36,632 bases of DNA from a virus. Taxonomy: Duplodnaviria; Heunggongvirae; Uroviricota; Caudoviricetes. Made by a program: the position numbers and the translations under genes. Where the stretch lies: IMG/VR virus record IMGVR_UViG_2541047758_000014. One strand, written 5' to 3'. Shown here piece after piece: positions 1,011-36,632 of this stretch. The first letter of the stretch is position 1. The number at the start of each line of letters is the position of its first letter. The notes under the pieces are model-generated. The model made no database searches. It saw nothing but the letters and a program-made list of their open reading frames with translations, and had not been told where the DNA came from.

Positions 1011-1988
1011 TTAAGCACCTCCTAGTGGATTAAACCTCACCGCATCCTGCAGGTAATCCGGCGCAAGATGGGCATAAATCATCGTTGTCTGAATCTTTGC
1101 GTGCCCCAGAATTTTCTGGAGCGTCAGAATATTGCCGCCGTTCATCATGAAATGACTGGCGAAGGTGTGGCGCAGCGCATGAACAGCCTGGCCGTCAGGA
1201 ACATCAGGTGCGACCGTTTTGATGACATCGCGAACCAATGGATAATCCAGCGTCGGAAACACCAGTTTCCCGCCCCGTTTTTTGATCTTTTCAAACAGGC
1301 TTTCAGAAATAGGAACGGTACGGTTTTTGCTGTTCTTCGTTTTTGAAAAAGTGATTCGACAATGAAGAACACGGCGCTGCTCCAGTGCCGCTACCTCGCC
1401 CCATCGCGCCCCGGTCGACAGAAGGATTTCGACGGCCAGCCGTTCATCGGGATTTTCAGCCAGTGCATCCAGCAACTGAACACATTCAGACTTACTCAGA
1501 TATCCCATTTCACGCTCGTTAACCTTCATTCCTTTAAGGCCTTGAACGGGGTTATCGTTAAGAAAATGGCCGGATGAGATGAGTGCGGTAAACATCGCGC
1601 TTAACGCCCCAATCTCTCGATTTATGGTGCTGGGCTGTATCCCCTGCTCTATCCTGGACACACGTAGCTCGGTGAGCATCGTTGTATTAAGTTTATGCAC
1701 GCACGGGTCATCCATTGCCTCACTCAAGCGCAGCAATTTAAGGCGCGTGTTATGCCCTGACTTCATTAGCTGGCCGTGGTATTTCCACCACAAGTCAATA
1801 AGCACTGACAGCGGACGGCGATCAATGGAGTTTCCTTTCCACTCATTGTTATGCTGTTGCGCCAGCACCCACCGCTCATATAAAACTGCATCCGATTTCG
1901 TTTTAAATTTTTTGCGAATGCGTTTGCCTTTACGCCCCTCAGGACGCATGTCAAGAAGATACCCTCCCGGAATTGATTTTATGCTCAT
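1011..1988 (-). CDS. int: Phage tyrosine integrase (P2-type site-specific recombinase)
   Basis: Track ORF 1011..2138; start placed at the internal ATG at 1988 (MSIKSIPGGYLLDMRPEG...). C-terminal HALRHTFASHF...ILGHAKIQTTMIYAHL matches the tyrosine recombinase catalytic region (R, H-x-x-R, Y). Confidence 0.9.
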   Translation of the reverse strand: MSIKSIPGGYLLDMRPEGRKGKRIRKKFKTKSDAVLYERWVLAQQHNNEWKGNSIDRRPLSVLIDLWWKYHGQLMKSGHNTRLKLLRLSEAMDDPCVHKLNTTMLTELRVSRIEQGIQPSTINREIGALSAMFTALISSGHFLNDNPVQGLKGMKVNEREMGYLSKSECVQLLDALAENPDERLAVEILLSTGARWGEVAALEQRRVLHCRITFSKTKNSKNRTVPISESLFEKIKKRGGKLVFPTLDYPLVRDVIKTVAPDVPDGQAVHALRHTFASHFMMNGGNILTLQKILGHAKIQTTMIYAHLAPDYLQDAVRFNPLGGA

Positions 1989-2037
1989 TCGTGAAACCCC
2001 AGCGTTACAAGACCACCATGCCCCCAGCGCTCCATGA

Positions 2038-2346
2038 TTAGCCGGGCTGTGTGCCAGTCTTGCGGGGTTTTTGAGAAGGCGATGTGCTTTTTGGCCCATC
2101 AGGGGAGAGAGACGGACTGATCTGCCCAGCAGCCTCATTTGTTTTTCCCGTCATAAGCCAATTCATGTACTTAAAAAAGCGAGGGTGATTAACAATCTTG
2201 ATAAGCACTTCGCCCCCTATGTTTTCAATCCGCCCCGTTTCATAACGACGCAAAGTGCCGATAGGCACATCAATCAGGCCGCAAAATTCTTCGCGCGTTA
2301 AATCCTCTGATTCACGAATCACTCTAATTTTTTCACCGATAAGCAT
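2038..2346 (-). CDS. Immunity repressor, P2 C / 186 CI-like HTH protein
   Basis: Start placed at the internal ATG at 2346 (MLIGEKIRVIRESEDLTREEFCGLIDVPIGTLRRYETG... HTH); lies directly upstream of int and divergent from the early operon, as in P2. Confidence 0.8.
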   Translation of the reverse strand: MLIGEKIRVIRESEDLTREEFCGLIDVPIGTLRRYETGRIENIGGEVLIKIVNHPRFFKYMNWLMTGKTNEAAGQISPSLSPDGPKSTSPSQKPRKTGTQPG

Positions 2347-2442
2347 TGACAGTGTTCCTATAAGTACACTAAGCTTGCGCACGAGGTGTACTTATAAGTA
2401 CACCAAGTCACAAACAACCACAGATAGCGCAGGTTATCACAC
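2347..2442. promoter_or_regulatory. Divergent promoter/operator region between repressor and early operon
   Basis: Direct repeats tataagtacac at 2359..2369 and 2393..2403 (34 bp apart) and TTGACA at 2346..2351; resembles the direct-repeat operator layout of P2-type switches. Exact promoter hexamers not resolved. Confidence 0.5.
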
Positions 2443-4563: not shown

Positions 4564-4767
4564 ATGAACAAAAAGACCTGGTTTCGCGCATACATGTGGG
4601 TGCTGGTATGCGTCCTCGTCTCTCTCATTCTGTATGCAGGACTACTCCCCCGAATGATTTCATCAGACAGCTCCTTCCTGGTATTGCTGGGCATTTTCAT
4701 TGCCATGCTGTACCCGGCAGGCGTTGTTCGCCTTTTCAGTAAGTACATCAAGGAAATCAAACAATGA
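4564..4767 (+). CDS. Small two-helix membrane protein, possible partner of the downstream SPFH protein
   Basis: 67 aa; two hydrophobic segments (WVLVCVLVSLILYAGLL and FLVLLGIFIAMLYPAGVV); RBS aaggga; stop overlaps the next start. Confidence 0.55.
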   Translation: MNKKTWFRAYMWVLVCVLVSLILYAGLLPRMISSDSSFLVLLGIFIAMLYPAGVVRLFSKYIKEIKQ

Positions 4768-5594
4768 AGAAATTCAAACTCTTTCAGATTCTCCCGCTTT
4801 TTGCCGCCATCCTGCTGGTTGGCTGCGATCGCGTTGAGCCAGGTAATGTGGGCATCAAAGTCAACAAGCTGGGCGACGACAAAGGCGTTGGCGAAGTGGT
4901 TGGCGTTGGCCGCTACTGGACTGGCTGGAATACCGAGGTTTACATCTTCCCGACCTTCAAACAAATGAAGACCTACGATGAGCCGTTCAGCTTTCAGATG
5001 AGTGACGGCACAACCATCGGCTATCACATCGGCGTGGCTTACAAGGTTGATCCATCCAAAGTTACCACAGTGTTTCAGACCTACCGCAAAGGCGTGGATG
5101 ACATTACCGACACTGACCTGCGCCAGAAGATTGCCGATGCACTCAACCGACTGGCCAGCAAAATGACCACCGATAAGTTTATCGACGGTGGTAAGTCTGA
5201 ACTGCTGGATTCAGCACTTAAAGATATTCAGGAAGAGATGACCCCCATCGGCATTCAGGTCATGAGCCTCTCTTATGTCGGTAAACCGGAATATCCGCCA
5301 ACCGTTATCGACAGCATTAACGCCAAAGTCACGGCAAACCAGAAAACCCTGCAACGCGAACAGGAAGTCAAGCAACGCGAAGCAGAAGCCAACATGTTGC
5401 GCGCAGAAGCTGCCGGACAGGCTGATGCCATTCGCACAAAAGCCCAGGCTGAAGCCGACGCCATTCGTTTACGCGGTGAAGCTCTGCGCCAGAATCCCGG
5501 CGTTATGGAGCTGGAAGCAATCAACAAATGGAACGGCACGCTGCCGCAATACATGACCAGCAACACCGCTGTTCCGTTTGTTCCGGTGAAGTAA
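4764..5594 (+). CDS. SPFH/band-7 (prohibitin/stomatin-like) domain lipoprotein
   Basis: 276 aa; lipobox LLVGC at the N-terminus; central region and Ala/Glu/Gln-rich coiled coil typical of SPFH proteins. Confidence 0.7.
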   Translation: MKKFKLFQILPLFAAILLVGCDRVEPGNVGIKVNKLGDDKGVGEVVGVGRYWTGWNTEVYIFPTFKQMKTYDEPFSFQMSDGTTIGYHIGVAYKVDPSKVTTVFQTYRKGVDDITDTDLRQKIADALNRLASKMTTDKFIDGGKSELLDSALKDIQEEMTPIGIQVMSLSYVGKPEYPPTVIDSINAKVTANQKTLQREQEVKQREAEANMLRAEAAGQADAIRTKAQAEADAIRLRGEALRQNPGVMELEAINKWNGTLPQYMTSNTAVPFVPVK

Positions 5595-5963
5595 TTAAAC
5601 CCGGCCAGTGAAAATCGCTGGCCGGAGCAGTATCAGGATTTTTTTTAGTATGCCGTTCTCACAAAAAAACCGCTTGCCATGCCGCAATCAGTCAGGTTAC
5701 ATTTCCGCTGCACCTCATAAAACGGGTGCCGGGATTTCCACCCCGCTGACAACCAAAGCGCACAACCGCGCCAGCGGTTTTTTTGTGCGTACCGTATCGC
5801 CACGTCTTTTTCGCACACGAATTATGGTGGGGCGTATGGGGCCGACTTCGGTCGGGCCGGGTTCTTTGGTTGCCGGTTGTGGAAACCCTGTACGTCTCAC
5901 CACCCCGAGTTTTCCACCTCTGGATGGTGAGTTTTCAAAACTTACAACCAAAGAGGCCACACC

Positions 5964-6266: not shown

Positions 6267-6632
6267 ATGATTCTCGCCAACGACTTTCTTGAATACCTGC
6301 TCAACACAGAACGTGATCTTGCCGCTCGCGTGCGTGATCGTTATGACATGTACCTGAAATCCCTGCCTGTACCGCAGCTCGCTGACGGAAAGATTGTTAT
6401 TGATGGTCGCTACATGATTGACAGCCACGAGGGAAATTACAGGCTTTACCGCATTGAAGGTGGTACTCCGTCCGTTATTGGCATTTACCAGCGCCCATCC
6501 TCTGCAATCGTCGATGTGATTGCCGACAGCATCCGCATCACACATCGCCATGCCGACACAGAAGACACCGTGCTGGAAATTCAGCGGCTGGCTACAGTCT
6601 GCCGCGACACCCTGAATGGCATGACGAAGTAA
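6267..6632 (+). CDS. Hypothetical protein upstream of the replication gene
   Basis: 121 aa ORF with RBS aagagga; 6 bp before the gpA start. Confidence 0.5.
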   Translation: MILANDFLEYLLNTERDLAARVRDRYDMYLKSLPVPQLADGKIVIDGRYMIDSHEGNYRLYRIEGGTPSVIGIYQRPSSAIVDVIADSIRITHRHADTEDTVLEIQRLATVCRDTLNGMTK

Positions 6633-6638
6633 ATCACT

Positions 6639-9461
6639 ATGACGGCAGAGTACATCAGGGACTGGCAACAACCGCGCCACGCAGTGGGGCGTGAAGGAAC
6701 GGGGATCCCCGCTCCTGAATCCGCGCTTTCCTCCTGGCTGGATGCCTACCGGGTAGAGAACGAGCGCCGCCAGGAAATGGCTGATGCGGCGTTCTCCGCC
6801 ACGCCGCTGGGCAACCTGATTAATAAAAGCCTGGACGCACAGGAAAAACAGGACAAAACCATCACACTGGCAGGAGACGCCAGAAAACAGGCACGCGGCG
6901 CGGTGGATGAAGCCATGGCCTCGCTGCGCCTGCTGCCGTCCTATCTGCGCGATCCGCTTATTCGCCACCTCTCCTTCCTTCGCAAAAAACAGGAAGCCGA
7001 TCGCCGGAAAGGCAAAAAGAGCTGGCAGGCGGAACGCTATGCACGCGGAACCCTGCGCAAAATATTCGAACGTCTGGATCGCACTGACGGACGCTGGCTG
7101 ACACCGGGTTATCGCTCCCTTGCCGGACGCGAACGCCTGGACGATTTGCTTTACCTGCCGCAGCTCAACAAACACCAGATACAGACGCTGGCCACCATGA
7201 CGGCGGCGATGTTCAGCAGCACCTTCGAAAAACTCTGCGATGGCTTTGGCGCGACTGATGGCGAACTGACCATGGATGTAACGCTGAAGGCGTATCAGAT
7301 GCTGGCCCGCATGGCGTTACACCTGCACGCCATGCCTCCACATTATGACGCACTGACAACAGACAAAGACCGGAGGAACGAACCGGACACGGAGCTGCTG
7401 CCGGGCGCAATCCTTCGCCTGACCTGTGCGGAATGGTGGAAACGCAAACTGTGGCTGTTACGTTGCGAGTGGAGAGAAGAACAACTCCGCGCCGCCTGTC
7501 TGGTTTCCAGAAAAACATCACCCTATCTGAGCCAGGACGCGTTAAGCGAGTTTCGCGCACAGCGCGAGAAAACACGCGATTTCCTGAAAAGTTTCATGCT
7601 GGAAAATGAAGACGGGTTCACGATTGATCTCGAGACAGTGTATTACGCGGGAGTAAGTAACCCGGTTCACCGTAAGGCAGAAATGATGGCCACCATGAAG
7701 GGACTGGAACTTCTGGCCGAAGCCCGTGGCGACAGAGCGGTGTTTCTGACTGTCACCTGCCCGTCAAAATACCACGCAACAACGGAGAACGGTCATCCGA
7801 ACCCCAAATGGAACGGGGCCACCATGCGCGACTCCAGCGATTACCTGGTTAACACGTTTTTTGCGGCGGTCCGCAAGAAACTGAACCGCGACGGCCTGCG
7901 CTGGTATGGCATCCGCACGGTGGAGCCTCACCATGACGGCACCGTGCACTGGCATATGATGGTCTTTGCTCATCCGGAAGAAATCGACACCATTGTGTCC
8001 CACACCCGCGATATTGCCATTCAGGAAGATCGCCACGAGCTGGGCGATGATATTACTCCGCGCTTTAAGGCGGAGTACGTCGACGGCTCAAAAGGTACGC
8101 CAACCAGCTACATCGCCACCTACATCGGAAAGAACCTGGACAGCCGCGCCGTGGATGGTATCGACCCGAAAACGGGCAAGCCACGCGTTGACCACGAAAC
8201 CGGAAAATCAATGGCCGAGAGCGTGGAGCGCGCCATCGGCTGGGCGCGCCTTCACCGGGTCCGCCAGTTCCAGTTCTTTGGCATCCCCTCCCGTCAGGTG
8301 TGGCGTGAACTACGCCGCCTTGCCAGCCAGATGGCACGCAACCCGGAAGGCCCGCAACGGCTGAAGGATGACGCAATGGATGCGGTACTCGCTGCCGCTG
8401 ATGCCGGGTGTTTTGCCACCTACATTGAAAAACAGGGTGGCGTGCTTGTTCCACGCAAAGACTACCTGATTCGCACCGCCTACGACCTCGCAGAAGAGCT
8501 GAACGATTACGGCGAACAGAGCGTACAGATTTATGGGATCTGGTCACCACTCATCGGGGAATCCTCCCGTGTGTGCACGCATCCGGATAACTGGAAGCTG
8601 GTAAGACGCAAACCGGAAGCGGAAGACAGCACCCGCGAAAATGGTTTTGACCTTCAGGGCGGCCCTGCCGCCCCTTGGACTCGTGGCAATAACTGTCCCC
8701 GTGTACAGGAAACGAACAACAACGGGACAGAACAGCCGGAAGAACGGCCAGCACCGTGGCCGCAGCTCCCTGACGGCGTTGAAGTGAACGAATGGATGCG
8801 CTCACTGAAACGGCACGAACGCCGGGCGCTGATGCGTTCGCTTCGTGACAAACAGGCAAAAAACAGCAGCGATGAAATGCAGAGCTGGACACAGAGCCGC
8901 AAACAGCAGCGGCCTTTGCCTGATAACCACGAATTACTCGCTAAAGAATGGCGGGAGTCTGCTGAATCTCTCGGCCTGCATATCGGTGAACAACAGATGC
9001 AGCACCTGTTACGGGGCGGCAGTCTGTACGTTGACGGCAGCATCATTGCACCGCAGGGATTTGAAATTGTACGCAAACCGGATACCCGCCCGGACAGCCG
9101 AATCACGCAGCTCTGGCAGCGCCTGAGCCGTAATCACGGCGTAAGCAGCACGGAGATCCGCCATAACCCGGTCTCCAGCTATCTGGCACAGCTCGGGGCA
9201 TCAGACCCCGAAGCCGCCGCACGCCTGGCATCCACACTTCAGCAGGTCCAGAACACCATGAAAACACCCGTTACCGTGCTTTCTGACATGCTGCGCGCCA
9301 TTCGTGACGCAGAGCACGCACAGAGAATCAGAGAAACCACTGAACGCGCCCGCCGCAAAGCAAACCTGCTGAGGACTGGCCTGACCAGTGGAAACAAAAA
9401 ACAGACAGAAACGGGATTCACAAATCCCGTAAATGAGCAAAAAACGCGCCGCGATATATGA
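6639..9461 (+). CDS. A: Replication initiation endonuclease (P2 gpA / 186 A-like rolling-circle initiator)
   Basis: 940 aa; contains the HUH-type region HHDGTVHWHMMVFAHPEEI and Tyr-containing segment characteristic of P2 A; position after the early operon. Confidence 0.85.
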   Translation: MTAEYIRDWQQPRHAVGREGTGIPAPESALSSWLDAYRVENERRQEMADAAFSATPLGNLINKSLDAQEKQDKTITLAGDARKQARGAVDEAMASLRLLPSYLRDPLIRHLSFLRKKQEADRRKGKKSWQAERYARGTLRKIFERLDRTDGRWLTPGYRSLAGRERLDDLLYLPQLNKHQIQTLATMTAAMFSSTFEKLCDGFGATDGELTMDVTLKAYQMLARMALHLHAMPPHYDALTTDKDRRNEPDTELLPGAILRLTCAEWWKRKLWLLRCEWREEQLRAACLVSRKTSPYLSQDALSEFRAQREKTRDFLKSFMLENEDGFTIDLETVYYAGVSNPVHRKAEMMATMKGLELLAEARGDRAVFLTVTCPSKYHATTENGHPNPKWNGATMRDSSDYLVNTFFAAVRKKLNRDGLRWYGIRTVEPHHDGTVHWHMMVFAHPEEIDTIVSHTRDIAIQEDRHELGDDITPRFKAEYVDGSKGTPTSYIATYIGKNLDSRAVDGIDPKTGKPRVDHETGKSMAESVERAIGWARLHRVRQFQFFGIPSRQVWRELRRLASQMARNPEGPQRLKDDAMDAVLAAADAGCFATYIEKQGGVLVPRKDYLIRTAYDLAEELNDYGEQSVQIYGIWSPLIGESSRVCTHPDNWKLVRRKPEAEDSTRENGFDLQGGPAAPWTRGNNCPRVQETNNNGTEQPEERPAPWPQLPDGVEVNEWMRSLKRHERRALMRSLRDKQAKNSSDEMQSWTQSRKQQRPLPDNHELLAKEWRESAESLGLHIGEQQMQHLLRGGSLYVDGSIIAPQGFEIVRKPDTRPDSRITQLWQRLSRNHGVSSTEIRHNPVSSYLAQLGASDPEAAARLASTLQQVQNTMKTPVTVLSDMLRAIRDAEHAQRIRETTERARRKANLLRTGLTSGNKKQTETGFTNPVNEQKTRRDI

Positions 9462-9506
9462 AGTGCGCACAAAACAGGCGAAAGCGGGATTTAAAAATCC
9501 CGTAAA
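9412..9506. repeat. Two 22-bp palindromic repeats flanking the A stop, candidate parC-like centromere or iterons
   Basis: cgggattcacaaatcccgtaaa at 9412..9433 and cgggatttaaaaatcccgtaaa at 9485..9506; each is an inverted repeat cgggatt-N4-aatcccg; immediately upstream of parM. Confidence 0.5.
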
Positions 9507-9537
9507 CGGTTAATTAACCAACATAAGGAAAATCGAC

Positions 9538-10497
9538 ATGAAAATTTGTATCGACGACGGCTCCACCAACATCAAGCTGGCATGGACTGAGAATGGCGAA
9601 CGCCGCAACGCCATCAGCCCGAACAGCTTCAAGTCGGAATGGTCTGCGCCGTTCGGTGGCATGCAGCCCGCGAACTACATGCTTGATGGCGTGCGCTATG
9701 GTTTTGATCCGGTCAGCGATCGCTTTGTCCAGACGACCGACACGCAATACCAGTACAGCGATGTGAATGTAATCGCCATTCATCACGCGCTGGTCAAATC
9801 AGGCATCACGCCACAAGAGGTGGATGTGGTTGTCACCCTGCCACTGAGCGAGTATTTCGAGACAAACGCACAGCCGGACATGGCCAACATCAACCGCAAA
9901 AAAGCGAACGTTATGCGCTCGGTGGAGTACCAGAACGGCGAAGCATTCACTATCCGTAACGTGCGGGTTATGCCTGAATCCATTCCGGCTGGCTTTAAAG
10001 CACTGGCTGACATGAGTCCGTTTGAATCCCTGCTGATTGTGGATTTAGGCGGAACCACGCTGGATGTGGCAAAGGTTCAAGGGCAACTGGCAGGTATCAG
10101 CCAGGTGTTTTGCGATCCACACGTAGGCGTTTCCCTGATGGCCGATGCCGTACTGTCGGTGATGGCCACTAACGGTATGCGCACCAGTCACCACATCGCC
10201 AATACCATTATCGAACATCGCCATGATGAAGCCTGGCTGCGCCAGCACATCCACAATGACGCGCATTACGCCAGCCTGATGGCGGTTATTCGTGAAAAGG
10301 AAGAAACACTGAAACAACGCGTGATCCGCGCGCTGGCGGTTTTTTCGGGTTACGGGCGGGTGATGGTTGTCGGTGGAGGGGCGGAGATTGTGGCACCCGC
10401 TATCCGCGAAGTCTGCGGAGTTAATGCGACTTTCATCGCGGACGGGGTGCCACAGTTTGCTCTGGTTAATGGGCTGTACGCAATGGACAAGGAGTAA
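9538..10497 (+). CDS. parM: ParM/StbA-like actin-type partition ATPase
   Basis: 319 aa; N-terminus MKICIDDGSTNIKLAW and ISPNSFK...YSDVNVIAIHHAL closely resemble plasmid R1 ParM (MLVFIDDGSTNIKLQW...). Confidence 0.85.
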   Translation: MKICIDDGSTNIKLAWTENGERRNAISPNSFKSEWSAPFGGMQPANYMLDGVRYGFDPVSDRFVQTTDTQYQYSDVNVIAIHHALVKSGITPQEVDVVVTLPLSEYFETNAQPDMANINRKKANVMRSVEYQNGEAFTIRNVRVMPESIPAGFKALADMSPFESLLIVDLGGTTLDVAKVQGQLAGISQVFCDPHVGVSLMADAVLSVMATNGMRTSHHIANTIIEHRHDEAWLRQHIHNDAHYASLMAVIREKEETLKQRVIRALAVFSGYGRVMVVGGGAEIVAPAIREVCGVNATFIADGVPQFALVNGLYAMDKE

Positions 10498-10501
10498 ACC
10501 A

Positions 10502-10813
10502 ATGACGACACCAACCAGACGGATAAGTTTCTATCTGAAGCCTGCGGCCGTCAAGAACGAAAGCGAAGCATGCGCCTGGCTGGACAGCCTTACACCAGAA
10601 GCCCGCAAAAGCGGCCAACGCGTGGCTTTTCTGGCTGGGCTGGCACTTCTGAAAATGAATCCAGCAGAGGCTTACCGACTGGCTGCATGGGCTGACGATG
10701 AGGCGTTATCCGTGACACAAACCAGGACTGAACGCCCCGTGTCACAGCCAGTACCAACCGCACAGATAACCAATCAGATGGCCGGAAATATCAGGGCGTT
10801 ATTCCCCGAATAA
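10502..10813 (+). CDS. parR: ParR-like centromere-binding adaptor
   Basis: 103 aa; start at ATG 10502 inside track ORF 10367..10813; RRISFYLKPAAV...AFLAGLALLKMNP resembles R1 ParR; sits directly downstream of parM as in the R1 par operon. Confidence 0.7.
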   Translation: MTTPTRRISFYLKPAAVKNESEACAWLDSLTPEARKSGQRVAFLAGLALLKMNPAEAYRLAAWADDEALSVTQTRTERPVSQPVPTAQITNQMAGNIRALFPE

Positions 10814-11044
10814 GGCAATACGGTGAAGCATCCCCAGGGGAAGTGAAGCTAAACTTAAGAGGGGCGGATATAGACGCCCCGATTCACAGAAAAATTTATT
10901 GAATTTGAACGTTTTCAACGTTATGTTTTACGCAGATTTCAAGGTTTTGGGGATTTAGAGGCGGCCCCCCAAAAGTTGATACCGCCTAGTTGGTAACTTC
11001 GTCGTCAGACTGGGACTCCAACCACGCCAGCTGAGAGGTTGGCG

Positions 11045-11851
11045 CTATTTTTTACGCAAAGGGGGTAATTTATATCGCAAATTAACCTCTTTCGTTTCAA
11101 TATCTCTTGGCCCCTTCTTTTTATCAAAAAACAACCAGATATTGAATTTTCGCTCTGTCGGCCAGGTATCGTGCCGTAATGATTCCCACCCAAGATAAGA
11201 AGCGATTTTCTCTGCCATAGCCAGTTTCGCTGGAGAAGTGGCTTTCCTTTGATATGCACACATGACAGCCCCTAATAAAAAATCGACAAGCTGAATATGT
11301 TCCGATGTTTTTGAGTCTTTTGTTTCAACTAGTTTAATTATGTCCTTGCGCCCATATTTTCGGGCCAGAGAATGGTTGGCAATTATGTGAAACTCTTCAT
11401 CGGCTTTTTTGTAACGAGATGGCAGGGGATCAACTTCTATAAGGAACTCACATTCCGCATGAGGCCACCTTTGGATCACGTTACCTATTTTTGTTTCAAT
11501 AAGCTTGCAAAAATGCTTACGCATTGCAAGATCATAATCCCCACCATGATATGATTTTTCTACTTTAGACTTCTCAACAATAATACAGTGAAAAGCCATC
11601 CAGTTGTGCCTAAAAAACACATCAATGACGTCGCTATAAAAAGCTGCATTACGCTTTGAATGTGCTTTCTGCCATTTGAGCTCATCACTGCATCCATGCT
11701 TTTTTCTCAAATCCTGTACCATGCGAGTGAGTTCAGCGCGCCTCTGATAGCTCATCCAGAGACTCCCAAACCCGTAGAATGGCTGCCCATCAACGCCAGA
11801 TTCATCACAGGCAACATGCCATATCATTTTTTTCTGATTGTTATCTTTCAT
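11045..11851 (-). CDS. DUF3800-like protein, candidate anti-phage or accessory cargo at the A-Q hotspot
   Basis: 268 aa; N-terminal WHVACDESG and C-terminal IQLVDFLLGAV motifs as I recall for DUF3800; gene is clearly more AT-rich than the phage backbone; opposite strand to its neighbours. Confidence 0.6.
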   Translation of the reverse strand: MKDNNQKKMIWHVACDESGVDGQPFYGFGSLWMSYQRRAELTRMVQDLRKKHGCSDELKWQKAHSKRNAAFYSDVIDVFFRHNWMAFHCIIVEKSKVEKSYHGGDYDLAMRKHFCKLIETKIGNVIQRWPHAECEFLIEVDPLPSRYKKADEEFHIIANHSLARKYGRKDIIKLVETKDSKTSEHIQLVDFLLGAVMCAYQRKATSPAKLAMAEKIASYLGWESLRHDTWPTERKFNIWLFFDKKKGPRDIETKEVNLRYKLPPLRKK

Positions 11852-36040: not shown

Positions 36041-36301
36041 ATGTTCCGTTGTCCGCTTTGTGGCGCATCTGCCCGTATCCGCACCAGTCGTCCGGAAAAT
36101 GATTCAAACACCGTGCGGCAAAAGTATTACCAGTGTAACAACCTGGAATGCGGCGTATGCTTCTCAACACTGGAAGCTTTCCATAAATTCACATCGAAAC
36201 ACGCCTCCGGCATCCACTCTTCAGAAGATATCCCGTGGCATGAGCTGCCAGCTTCACACAGGGGAAACAATCAGATGAGCTTGCCTTTACCTCAGAATTA
36301 A
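36041..36301 (+). CDS. ogr: Ogr-family zinc-finger late transcription activator
   Basis: MFRCPLCGASARIRTSR...YYQCNNLECGVCF matches the P2 Ogr C-x2-C...C-x4-C pattern; RBS aagggagg. Confidence 0.85.
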   Translation: MFRCPLCGASARIRTSRPENDSNTVRQKYYQCNNLECGVCFSTLEAFHKFTSKHASGIHSSEDIPWHELPASHRGNNQMSLPLPQN

Positions 36302-36361: not shown

Positions 36362-36574
36362 ATGGTCGGAGGGAATACCCGAAGGCCAGATGTGGAAAGG
36401 CCCCGGAAAACATCTCTGTTTAACCGAGGCCCTAACCGCATTACCTTGACAAGTGAAAGGTTAGCGCCTCTCCGGAAAAGGAGCAAGTGCTATGTCGCAA
36501 AAATCGCTTACGGCCATCACGTTCTGCGTGACGGCAATCCTCATCATCTGGATGTTGCACGGTTCGCTGTGTGA
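36362..36574 (+). CDS. mok-like overlapping reading frame of the hok locus
   Basis: 70 aa ORF overlapping the hok frame, as in hok/mok/sok loci; no sequence signature of its own. Confidence 0.35.
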   Translation: MVGGNTRRPDVERPRKTSLFNRGPNRITLTSERLAPLRKRSKCYVAKIAYGHHVLRDGNPHHLDVARFAV

Positions 36575-36632
36575 AATACGGATGAGCTTCTGGGGAGCGG
36601 AGTTTGCGGCGTTCTTACAGTGTAAGCAGTAA
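36492..36632 (+). CDS. hok: Hok/Gef-family type I toxin
   Basis: 46 aa MSQKSLTAITFCVTAILIIWMLHGSLCEIRMSFWGAEFAAFLQCKQ; SLCEIR and AAFL motifs match Hok/HokA; below ORF-track size cutoff; stop is the last codon of the window. Confidence 0.75.
   Translation: MSQKSLTAITFCVTAILIIWMLHGSLCEIRMSFWGAEFAAFLQCKQ

Follow-up and report, generated by a model that had tools for sequence, protein, structure and literature searches.

Why would a phage that integrates into the chromosome of its host carry an actin-like DNA-segregation system? The question is raised by a stretch of 36,632 nucleotides (IMG/VR record IMGVR_UViG_2541047758_000014), analyzed here over its full length and hereafter called the window, in which parM and parR genes follow the replication gene gpA of a P2-like prophage. 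The original prediction, made by reading the sequence without database searches, described these genes as a complete partition module preceded by two palindromes, and proposed as possible explanations a phage-plasmid lifestyle, an acquired plasmid module or a repurposed system. According to our analysis, the locus is rather likely to be a functional type II (ParMRC, R1-type) DNA-segregation cassette, whose ParM belongs to a phage-associated branch found in P2-like prophages of Enterobacterales. The genes concerned are the following:

6639..9461, plus strand: gpA, rolling-circle replication initiator of 940 amino acids (Pfam Phage_GPA, 4.7e-131), upstream of parM on the same strand
9538..10497, plus strand: parM, actin-like segregation ATPase of 319 amino acids (Pfam StbA_N, 1.4e-81; ParM C-terminal domain, 1e-68)
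10502..10813, plus strand: parR, adaptor and putative centromere-binding protein of 103 amino acids (Pfam Plasmid_stab_B, 1.8e-24, residues 6-76)

The coordinates first proposed for parM and parR behind gpA hold in the sequence and in the list of open reading frames (ORFs), and profile searches confirmed the identity of both products. The phage ParM matched the ParM of plasmid R1 (PDB 1mwk) over its full length (residues 2-316, 3.1e-92) and keeps the phosphate-1, phosphate-2, adenosine and catalytic glutamate motifs (DDGSTNIK, PESIPAG, DLGGTTLD and GGGAE). The parR gene starts 4 nucleotides past the parM stop codon, and its product matched PHROG 2515, annotated as “partition protein” (6e-58); a search of PDB sequences with ParR gave zero matches. 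The N-terminal strand RRISFYLKP and the C-terminal N-x3-LFP tail of ParR align with R1 ParR, which ends in KKNAMKLIN. The C-terminal motif N-x3-[LF]F-P is kept among phage ParRs, its asparagine being invariant in 10 of 10 aligned sequences. By these protein criteria, the two genes are a true ParM and a true ParR of the R1-type ParMRC family.

Comparison of P88-like loci also revealed at least two alleles of parR, encoding 103 and 104 amino acids and about 56% identical, behind parM genes that are 98-99% identical (window 10502..10813; locus L015, 4203..4517; locus L003). PTRRISFYLKP at the N terminus and the tail N-I-x3-FP at the C terminus are common to both alleles. From this pattern, the middle part of ParR may have been subject to recombination or to diversifying pressure.

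To which element does the cassette belong, and how constant is it there? Because the segment is 94-97% identical to phages P88, Chuche, PhiR44_2, Xuanwuvirus P884B11 and Citrobacter phiSM, we assign the window to a prophage of the P88-like type (Xuanwuvirus, Peduoviridae). Virion and packaging genes (portal, terminase, capsid and tail) are present alongside parMR, and the integrase, the repressor and the genes at the cox position are all intact. The genes relevant to the prophage lifestyle are:

1011..2138, minus strand: tyrosine integrase
2038..2382, minus strand: helix-turn-helix repressor
36041..36301: Ogr
36492..36632, plus strand: ORF of a Hok/Gef family toxin (Pfam, 4e-7), at the right end of the window beside ogr

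The parC-parMR segment was detected in 1,333 of 5,426 complete Escherichia coli genomes. A P88-type gpA was matched in 1,442 complete E. coli genomes, 58 of which gave only weak matches of 60-80%. Since the two counts are so close, parMR is a near-core gene pair of the P88 lineage rather than occasional cargo. The parM gene is an intact ORF of 319 codons in all 86 P88-like loci sampled (80 of them from IMG/VR), parR encodes 103 or 104 amino acids in 81 of 84 such loci, and the dN/dS ratio of parM (0.01-0.2) indicates purifying selection. The original prediction had left room for core genes of this phage group with a known role outside partition; the genes are indeed near-core, but no other role is known for them.

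The suggestion of a phage-plasmid lifestyle can be weighed against the same data. The window combines portal, terminase, capsid and tail genes with partition genes, in the manner of phage-plasmids. The other hallmark, a prophage that is extrachromosomal in lysogens, was not found: the phage has an integrase, and 1,495 of the 1,497 segment copies in complete E. coli genomes are chromosomal. True phage-plasmids would form regular low-copy plasmid lysogens, maintained by ParMRC and hok, with integration as an option, and we regard this as improbable here. It would agree with the presence of a Hok/Gef gene in the window, with the scoring of P88 by Pfeifer et al. as a carrier of phage genes together with plasmid partition or replication genes, and with the existence of a proven plasmid prophage, KS14, among P2-like phages of Burkholderia (PMC3091744). 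A circular P88-like genome of 34,461 bp has moreover been deposited as plasmid pZ1323PEC0009-2 (NZ_CP148288.1), and the relative in Plesiomonas lies on a contig (WEKF01000002.1, 32,167 bp) whose start is at its integrase. However, pZ1323PEC0009-2 is the sole phage-sized circular record found, and its 2-kb variable segment between parR and the portal gene is matched at 99.9% in the chromosome of a sister isolate; this chromosomal match is in the sister strain only, the assembly of the strain with pZ1323PEC0009-2 being absent among the best matches listed for the E. coli collection. The intact integration and repression genes also speak against regular plasmid lysogens, as does gpA, which is a rolling-circle initiator, with no theta-type plasmid replicon seen. 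KS14 uses a different solution (ParA, RepB and a serine recombinase). Given the tyrosine integrase, the chromosomal copies and the single circular record, a phage-plasmid lifestyle in the form first proposed does not hold, and the module is not evidence of a mainly plasmid lifestyle. The Plesiomonas contig and pZ1323PEC0009-2 are nevertheless parMR-bearing P2-like phages found as phage-sized stand-alone contigs or “plasmids”, with ends beside the integrase, and could be either episomes or induced DNA.

Where does the cassette come from? The ParMs of P88-like phages are at least 94% identical to one another, and the nearest plasmid ParM is 52.6% identical or less. In the phage collection, ParM was found only in P88-like phages and in the P1-like phage-plasmid D6 (47% identity). 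A scan of genome contigs for relatives returned three P88-like loci only, one of them on a contig with a probably wrong “Vagococcus” label, and more distant relatives were obtained through a protein-database search followed by contig look-ups. This search revealed intermediates in Hafnia (62%), Plesiomonas (62%), Serratia (58%) and Enterobacter ludwigii (53%), all of them P2-like prophages in which parM lies between gpA and the portal gene and is followed by a ParR of the Plasmid_stab_B family. The survey of related P2-like prophages proposed by the original prediction thus yielded the same module, in the same slot, in four further genera. All five ParMs sampled outside the phage group stand in plasmid, integrated-plasmid or integrative and conjugative element (ICE) contexts. 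Neighbor-joining (NJ) analysis united the ParMs of P88, Hafnia and Plesiomonas in one clade, supported by 100/100 bootstrap replicates.

Over these lineages, ParM (53-62% identity) is better conserved than phage core proteins, namely TerL (39-46%), the portal protein (29-48%) and gpA (32-57%); the terminases of the Hafnia and Plesiomonas prophages are 39-41% identical to that of the window. Comparison of the Serratia and Enterobacter loci gave 74% identity for parMR, 80% for TerL and 86% for the portal protein, but only 37% for gpA. Judging from these sequences, the replication initiator was swapped while parMR stayed, which indicates that the cassette is not tied to a single type of initiator. 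A recent acquisition from a plasmid was rejected on the identity gap (at least 94% within P88-like phages, at most 53% to plasmids). An acquired plasmid module, as first suggested, is thus tenable for the deep past but not for recent times, as the phage ParMs cluster separately from those of the plasmids sampled and the genes are near-core in the P88 lineage.

Is there a cis-acting site to match the two proteins? The motif CGGGATTNNNNAATCCCG (CGGGATT-N4-AATCCCG), searched with up to two mismatches, has exactly two matches in the 36.6-kb window, at 9412..9429 and 9485..9502. Shuffled sequences gave 0.07 expected matches, and none of 100 shuffles attained two. Each match is part of a longer repeat:

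9395..9433: distal 39-nucleotide repeat unit, holding the 18-bp palindrome CGGGATTCACAAATCCCG (9412..9429); candidate ParR site 1 (parC)
9468..9506: proximal 39-nucleotide repeat unit, holding the 18-bp palindrome CGGGATTTAAAAATCCCG (9485..9502); candidate ParR site 2 (parC or operator)

The two palindromes had been described as 22 bp long and as preceding parM. Two copies are indeed present upstream of parM, but the palindrome itself measures 18 bp and reaches 22 bp only with a shared TAAA, the whole belonging to 39-nucleotide direct repeats that are 82% identical and 73 bp apart. Only the proximal copy is intergenic, the distal one lying within the 3' end of the gpA reading frame. In this connection, gpA has 940 amino acids in the window and 785-835 in the Hafnia, Plesiomonas and Enterobacter relatives, and the extra C-terminal part overlaps the distal palindrome.

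The two-site arrangement is conserved across genera. A GGG-N10-CCC pattern occurs at 9413 and 9486 in the window (spacing 73 bp, 52 nucleotides to the parM ATG), at 7873 and 7946 in the Hafnia locus L006 (73 bp, 55 nucleotides) and at 6338 and 6410 in the Plesiomonas locus L009 (72 bp, 59 nucleotides), with just 4-7 occurrences of the pattern per whole locus or window. The sequences between the palindromes are unrelated among the three. In Hafnia, an ORF of 167 amino acids (L006, 7453..7956) lies between gpA and parM, and in Enterobacter two genes do, yet the repeats still adjoin parM. Because they travel with parM and not with gpA, the palindromes are a good candidate for a centromere, as originally proposed, or for an operator; the other function then proposed, that of replication iterons, is unlikely. 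The ability of the arms to pair as RNA stems is not preserved: in P88 they read CGGGACT and AATCCCG, and Hafnia retains only the GGG/CCC cores. Loss of arm pairing with retention of cores and spacing argues for a site of DNA-protein contact. The half-site centers, about 11 bp apart, would fit paired ribbon-helix-helix dimers, as expected by analogy with the ParR/Arc/CopG class. No co-variation was seen between ParR alleles and palindrome variants, alleles A and B sharing the same site variants, which is consistent with the identical N-terminal strand of both alleles. The cis region of the Serratia/Enterobacter group is different, with an inverted repeat of 14-20 nucleotides and a spacer of 26-28 nucleotides. 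As far as the sequences tell, the phage cis region is reduced and laid out differently when compared with that of plasmid and ICE relatives.

Other explanations of the repeats, or of the whole cassette, seem to us to have little chance of being correct. The palindromes could be an operator for ParR autoregulation, RNA hairpins or minus-strand terminators, or origin elements of gpA; alternatively, the cassette could be selfish, incompatibility or defense cargo of a variable hotspot. That there are only two sites would suit a function other than that of a centromere, and a scan of the minus strand flags 9430..9411 as terminator-like. However, no gene on the minus strand requires termination there, the pairing that an RNA hairpin needs is lost in the P88 and Hafnia variants, and the attachment of the repeats to parM argues against origin iterons of gpA. 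A purely regulatory role would leave the strong purifying selection on a full ParM ATPase unexplained. As to cargo, the cassette does border a variable slot between parR and the portal gene, which in the window holds a candidate defense gene:

11045..11851, minus strand: DUF3800 gene (PADLOC PDC-M04A, 2.5e-35), located in this slot

The contents of this slot differ among P88, vB_EcoM-569R5, pZ1323PEC0009-2 and the window, whereas parMR is constant. The hypothesis that parMR is itself a defense system was dropped, neither ParM nor ParR having a PADLOC match.

When would the cassette be expressed? Crude consensus scans for promoters and terminators revealed no terminator-like site on the plus strand from the C4 RNA region (about 5900) to parM, and thus none between gpA and parM, and zero matches to the sigma-70 consensus in 9200..11100; promoter scans of plasmid and ICE relatives gave similarly weak results. 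Two features stand out:

9508..9522, plus strand: AT-rich block GGTTAATTAACCAAC (most relatives have ATTAATCAA), flanked by the proximal palindrome and the Shine-Dalgarno sequence AAGGA
11025..11044, plus strand: terminator-like hairpin followed by a T-run, at which the gpA-parM-parR transcription unit probably ends; it abuts the convergent DUF3800 gene

The AT-rich block is kept in the upstream regions of P88-like, Hafnia and Plesiomonas loci and could be a weak -10 element or part of the translation-initiation region. Transcription of parMR is probably shared with gpA. Such co-transcription would place expression at the time when the phage genome is replicating and extrachromosomal, and would also prevent ParM spindles from assembling on chromosomal parC in lysogens.

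Two further observations concern the ends of this unit. Just upstream of gpA and of an ORF at 6267..6632, Rfam identified isrK (5710-5784, 64 bits) and a C4 antisense RNA (5820-5907, 80 bits), both on the plus strand, and a promoter-like site (5674-5703) and a terminator-like site (5764-5779) were found on the same strand of the window; the replication/partition operon may be under RNA control of the P1/P7 style. Between parR and the terminator, the 210-nucleotide stretch 10814..11024 is non-coding, without a match in Rfam, and contains a GC-rich hairpin (10861..10880) and the short direct repeats TTTCAACGTTATG and TTTCAAGGTTTTG.

Taken as a segregation cassette, the locus could work as follows. 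ParR dimers would bind the half-sites of both 18-bp palindromes just upstream of parM, which would lie on the same face of the helix, 73 bp corresponding to about seven helical turns. The small centromere complex (parC) so formed would cap filaments of ATP-bound ParM, and filament growth between two complexes would drive sister phage circles into opposite halves of the cell. Expression would accompany that of the early/replication operon, after infection and before integration or else after excision, since the cassette lies directly behind gpA on the same strand without a terminator or a recognizable promoter of its own. The benefit would be that neither daughter cell loses the replicating circles, with raised lysogenization and retention, in a facultative and transient episomal state. 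The role we favor, by analogy with known systems, is that of securing inheritance of the replicating, non-integrated form, either from infection to integration or upon excision without lysis. More tentatively, a large branch of P2-like phages, the P88 group included, may keep its own ParMRC lineage, with a minimal two-palindrome candidate centromere and expression slaved to the replication operon, and hence a regulated, actively partitioned episomal phase, be it a facultative phage-plasmid or carrier state or, in a Gram-negative host, the positioning of phage DNA by actin-like filaments.

The position of the cassette in the replication module, co-oriented with gpA and with no terminator between them, would suit a role in the lytic cycle as well. 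ParMR would then position or disperse replicating circles for efficient replication or packaging and would have no part in inheritance at division. P2-type phages package monomeric circles, and separating the circles could matter for this reason. The very strong conservation across lineages also fits a function exercised in every infection cycle, and in prophage CGP3 of Corynebacterium glutamicum the actin-like AlpC and its adaptor AlpA are reportedly needed for efficient viral DNA replication (PMC4446434, PMC5539076). We nonetheless consider a lytic role of this AlpC/AlpA/alpS-like kind unlikely: the proteins are close homologs of a dedicated partition system, ParM in the phage collection is restricted to P88-like phages and D6, and it is well established that P2, 186 and many well-studied P2-like phages replicate efficiently without ParMR.

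Several points weigh against the segregation of non-integrated circles, the reading that we prefer. With two sites, the phage has only four half-sites, far below the arrays of ~11-bp iterons seen upstream of parM in the plasmid relative L014 and the ICE relative L013, and a candidate centromere of two sites might serve chiefly as an operator. Since the first palindrome is within the gpA reading frame, part of its conservation could reflect protein-coding constraint. In a per-position comparison of 82 P88-like upstream regions, the arms were not clearly more conserved than the flanking DNA, a comparison made uninformative by too low a divergence and by one deletion variant that disturbs the alignment. 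A natural variant from IMG/VR (L039, about 4916..5000) lacks exactly one 73-bp repeat unit and is left with a single palindrome, its parM being intact and the 3' end of its gpA altered. An internal, weak promoter regulated by ParR and overlapping the proximal palindrome and the ATTAATCAA block is possible. The “plasmid” deposited as a circle may be no more than induced phage DNA, and a functional study of P88 or Xuanwuvirus parMR was not found in the searchable literature. Finally, grouping of all phage ParMs into one clade, with Serratia and Enterobacter added, has a bootstrap value of only 48/100 in the NJ tree, for which reason we do not claim a single acquisition.

How does the phage cassette compare with characterized systems? 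With the R1/NR1 ParMRC system (parA locus, type II) it shares the gene order (cis sites, parM, parR), a full-length ParM with all ATPase motifs and a ParR of the same Pfam family. It differs in being carried by an integrating P2-like phage, with the best plasmid ParM at most 53% identical. In R1, parC has a promoter with an array of five 11-bp direct iterons on either side; the phage cis region instead has a pair of 18-bp palindromes spaced by 73 bp, no iteron array and, in our crude scan, no sigma-70 consensus match inside it that would point to an R1-style autoregulated promoter. The iteron parC of the R1 style characterizes a subtype, and type II systems in general do not require it. In plasmid R1, parMRC is accompanied by hok/sok; the phage holds homologs of both R1 stability loci, in the case of the second a Hok/Gef ORF.

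The best functional analogy is srpMRC of the SXT/R391 ICEs, which reduces loss of the excised, plasmid-like form of R391 (Carraro et al. 2015, PMC4489591). In both cases, a ParMRC-type system is carried by a normally integrated element, beside a rolling-circle replication function. The function of srpMRC has been demonstrated, and that of the phage cassette would be similar by analogy; the srpMRC host element is conjugative and not a phage, and it is the phage proteins that are close homologs of R1 ParMR, srpMR being only a distant relative. The AlpC/AlpA/alpS system of CGP3 likewise combines a prophage-encoded actin-like filament, a DNA-binding adaptor and binding sites located upstream, and acts on excised phage DNA; for the P88-type cassette, ParR binding and action on excised DNA are predictions. 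It differs in that AlpC is a distant actin-like protein from a Gram-positive host, with a reported role in replication and transport of phage DNA. D6 has a StbA/ParM homolog, and KS14 combines a P2-like virion module with plasmid maintenance. Both are obligate plasmid prophages with dedicated plasmid replicons, in contrast to the P88-like phages, which have an integrase and are almost always chromosomal.

What, then, is new? RefSeq/GenBank records and PHROGs already use the names ParM and partition protein for these genes, and an episomal state has been proposed in a published study (Pfeifer et al.). As far as we can tell, the present analysis adds a candidate parC of two palindromes that is conserved in several genera, and the observation that parMR is near-core in a prophage carried by one in four complete E. 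coli genomes. These points sharpen an existing picture without opening a new one, and their value lies in testable specifics and not in discovery. Within the R1-type family, the phage cassette stands out by its host replicon, by a ParM that clusters separately from the plasmid ParMs sampled and by the layout of its candidate centromere. P88-like prophages are among the commonest in E. coli. Should their ParMRC be active, phage genomes that have been excised or have just entered a cell would be actively segregated replicons and not passive circles, which would bear on the efficiency of lysogenization, prophage stability, pseudolysogeny and carrier states, and the labeling of circles as “plasmids” in assemblies. 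An actively partitioned episomal phase, if it exists, would mean that the simple dichotomy between integrated and plasmid prophages fails for one of the commonest prophage types of E. coli, and would make the two-site parC the smallest type II centromere in nature. An active system would also offer a tractable E. coli model, near the best-understood bacterial actin, for asking how many ParR sites a centromere needs at minimum and why ICEs and phages keep partition machines.

Two minor observations were made along the way. A 226-kb contig labeled “Vagococcus sp.” (L004, NZ_JBQPOM010000071.1) encodes a ParM of the E. coli P88 type, 97% identical to that of the window; the label is probably due to contamination or a mislabeled assembly. 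In its early region, the window carries cargo that one would not expect in the early operon of a P2-like phage, with a small membrane ORF ahead of it:

4564..5594, plus strand: SPFH/Band-7 lipoprotein (Pfam, 5.7e-31)

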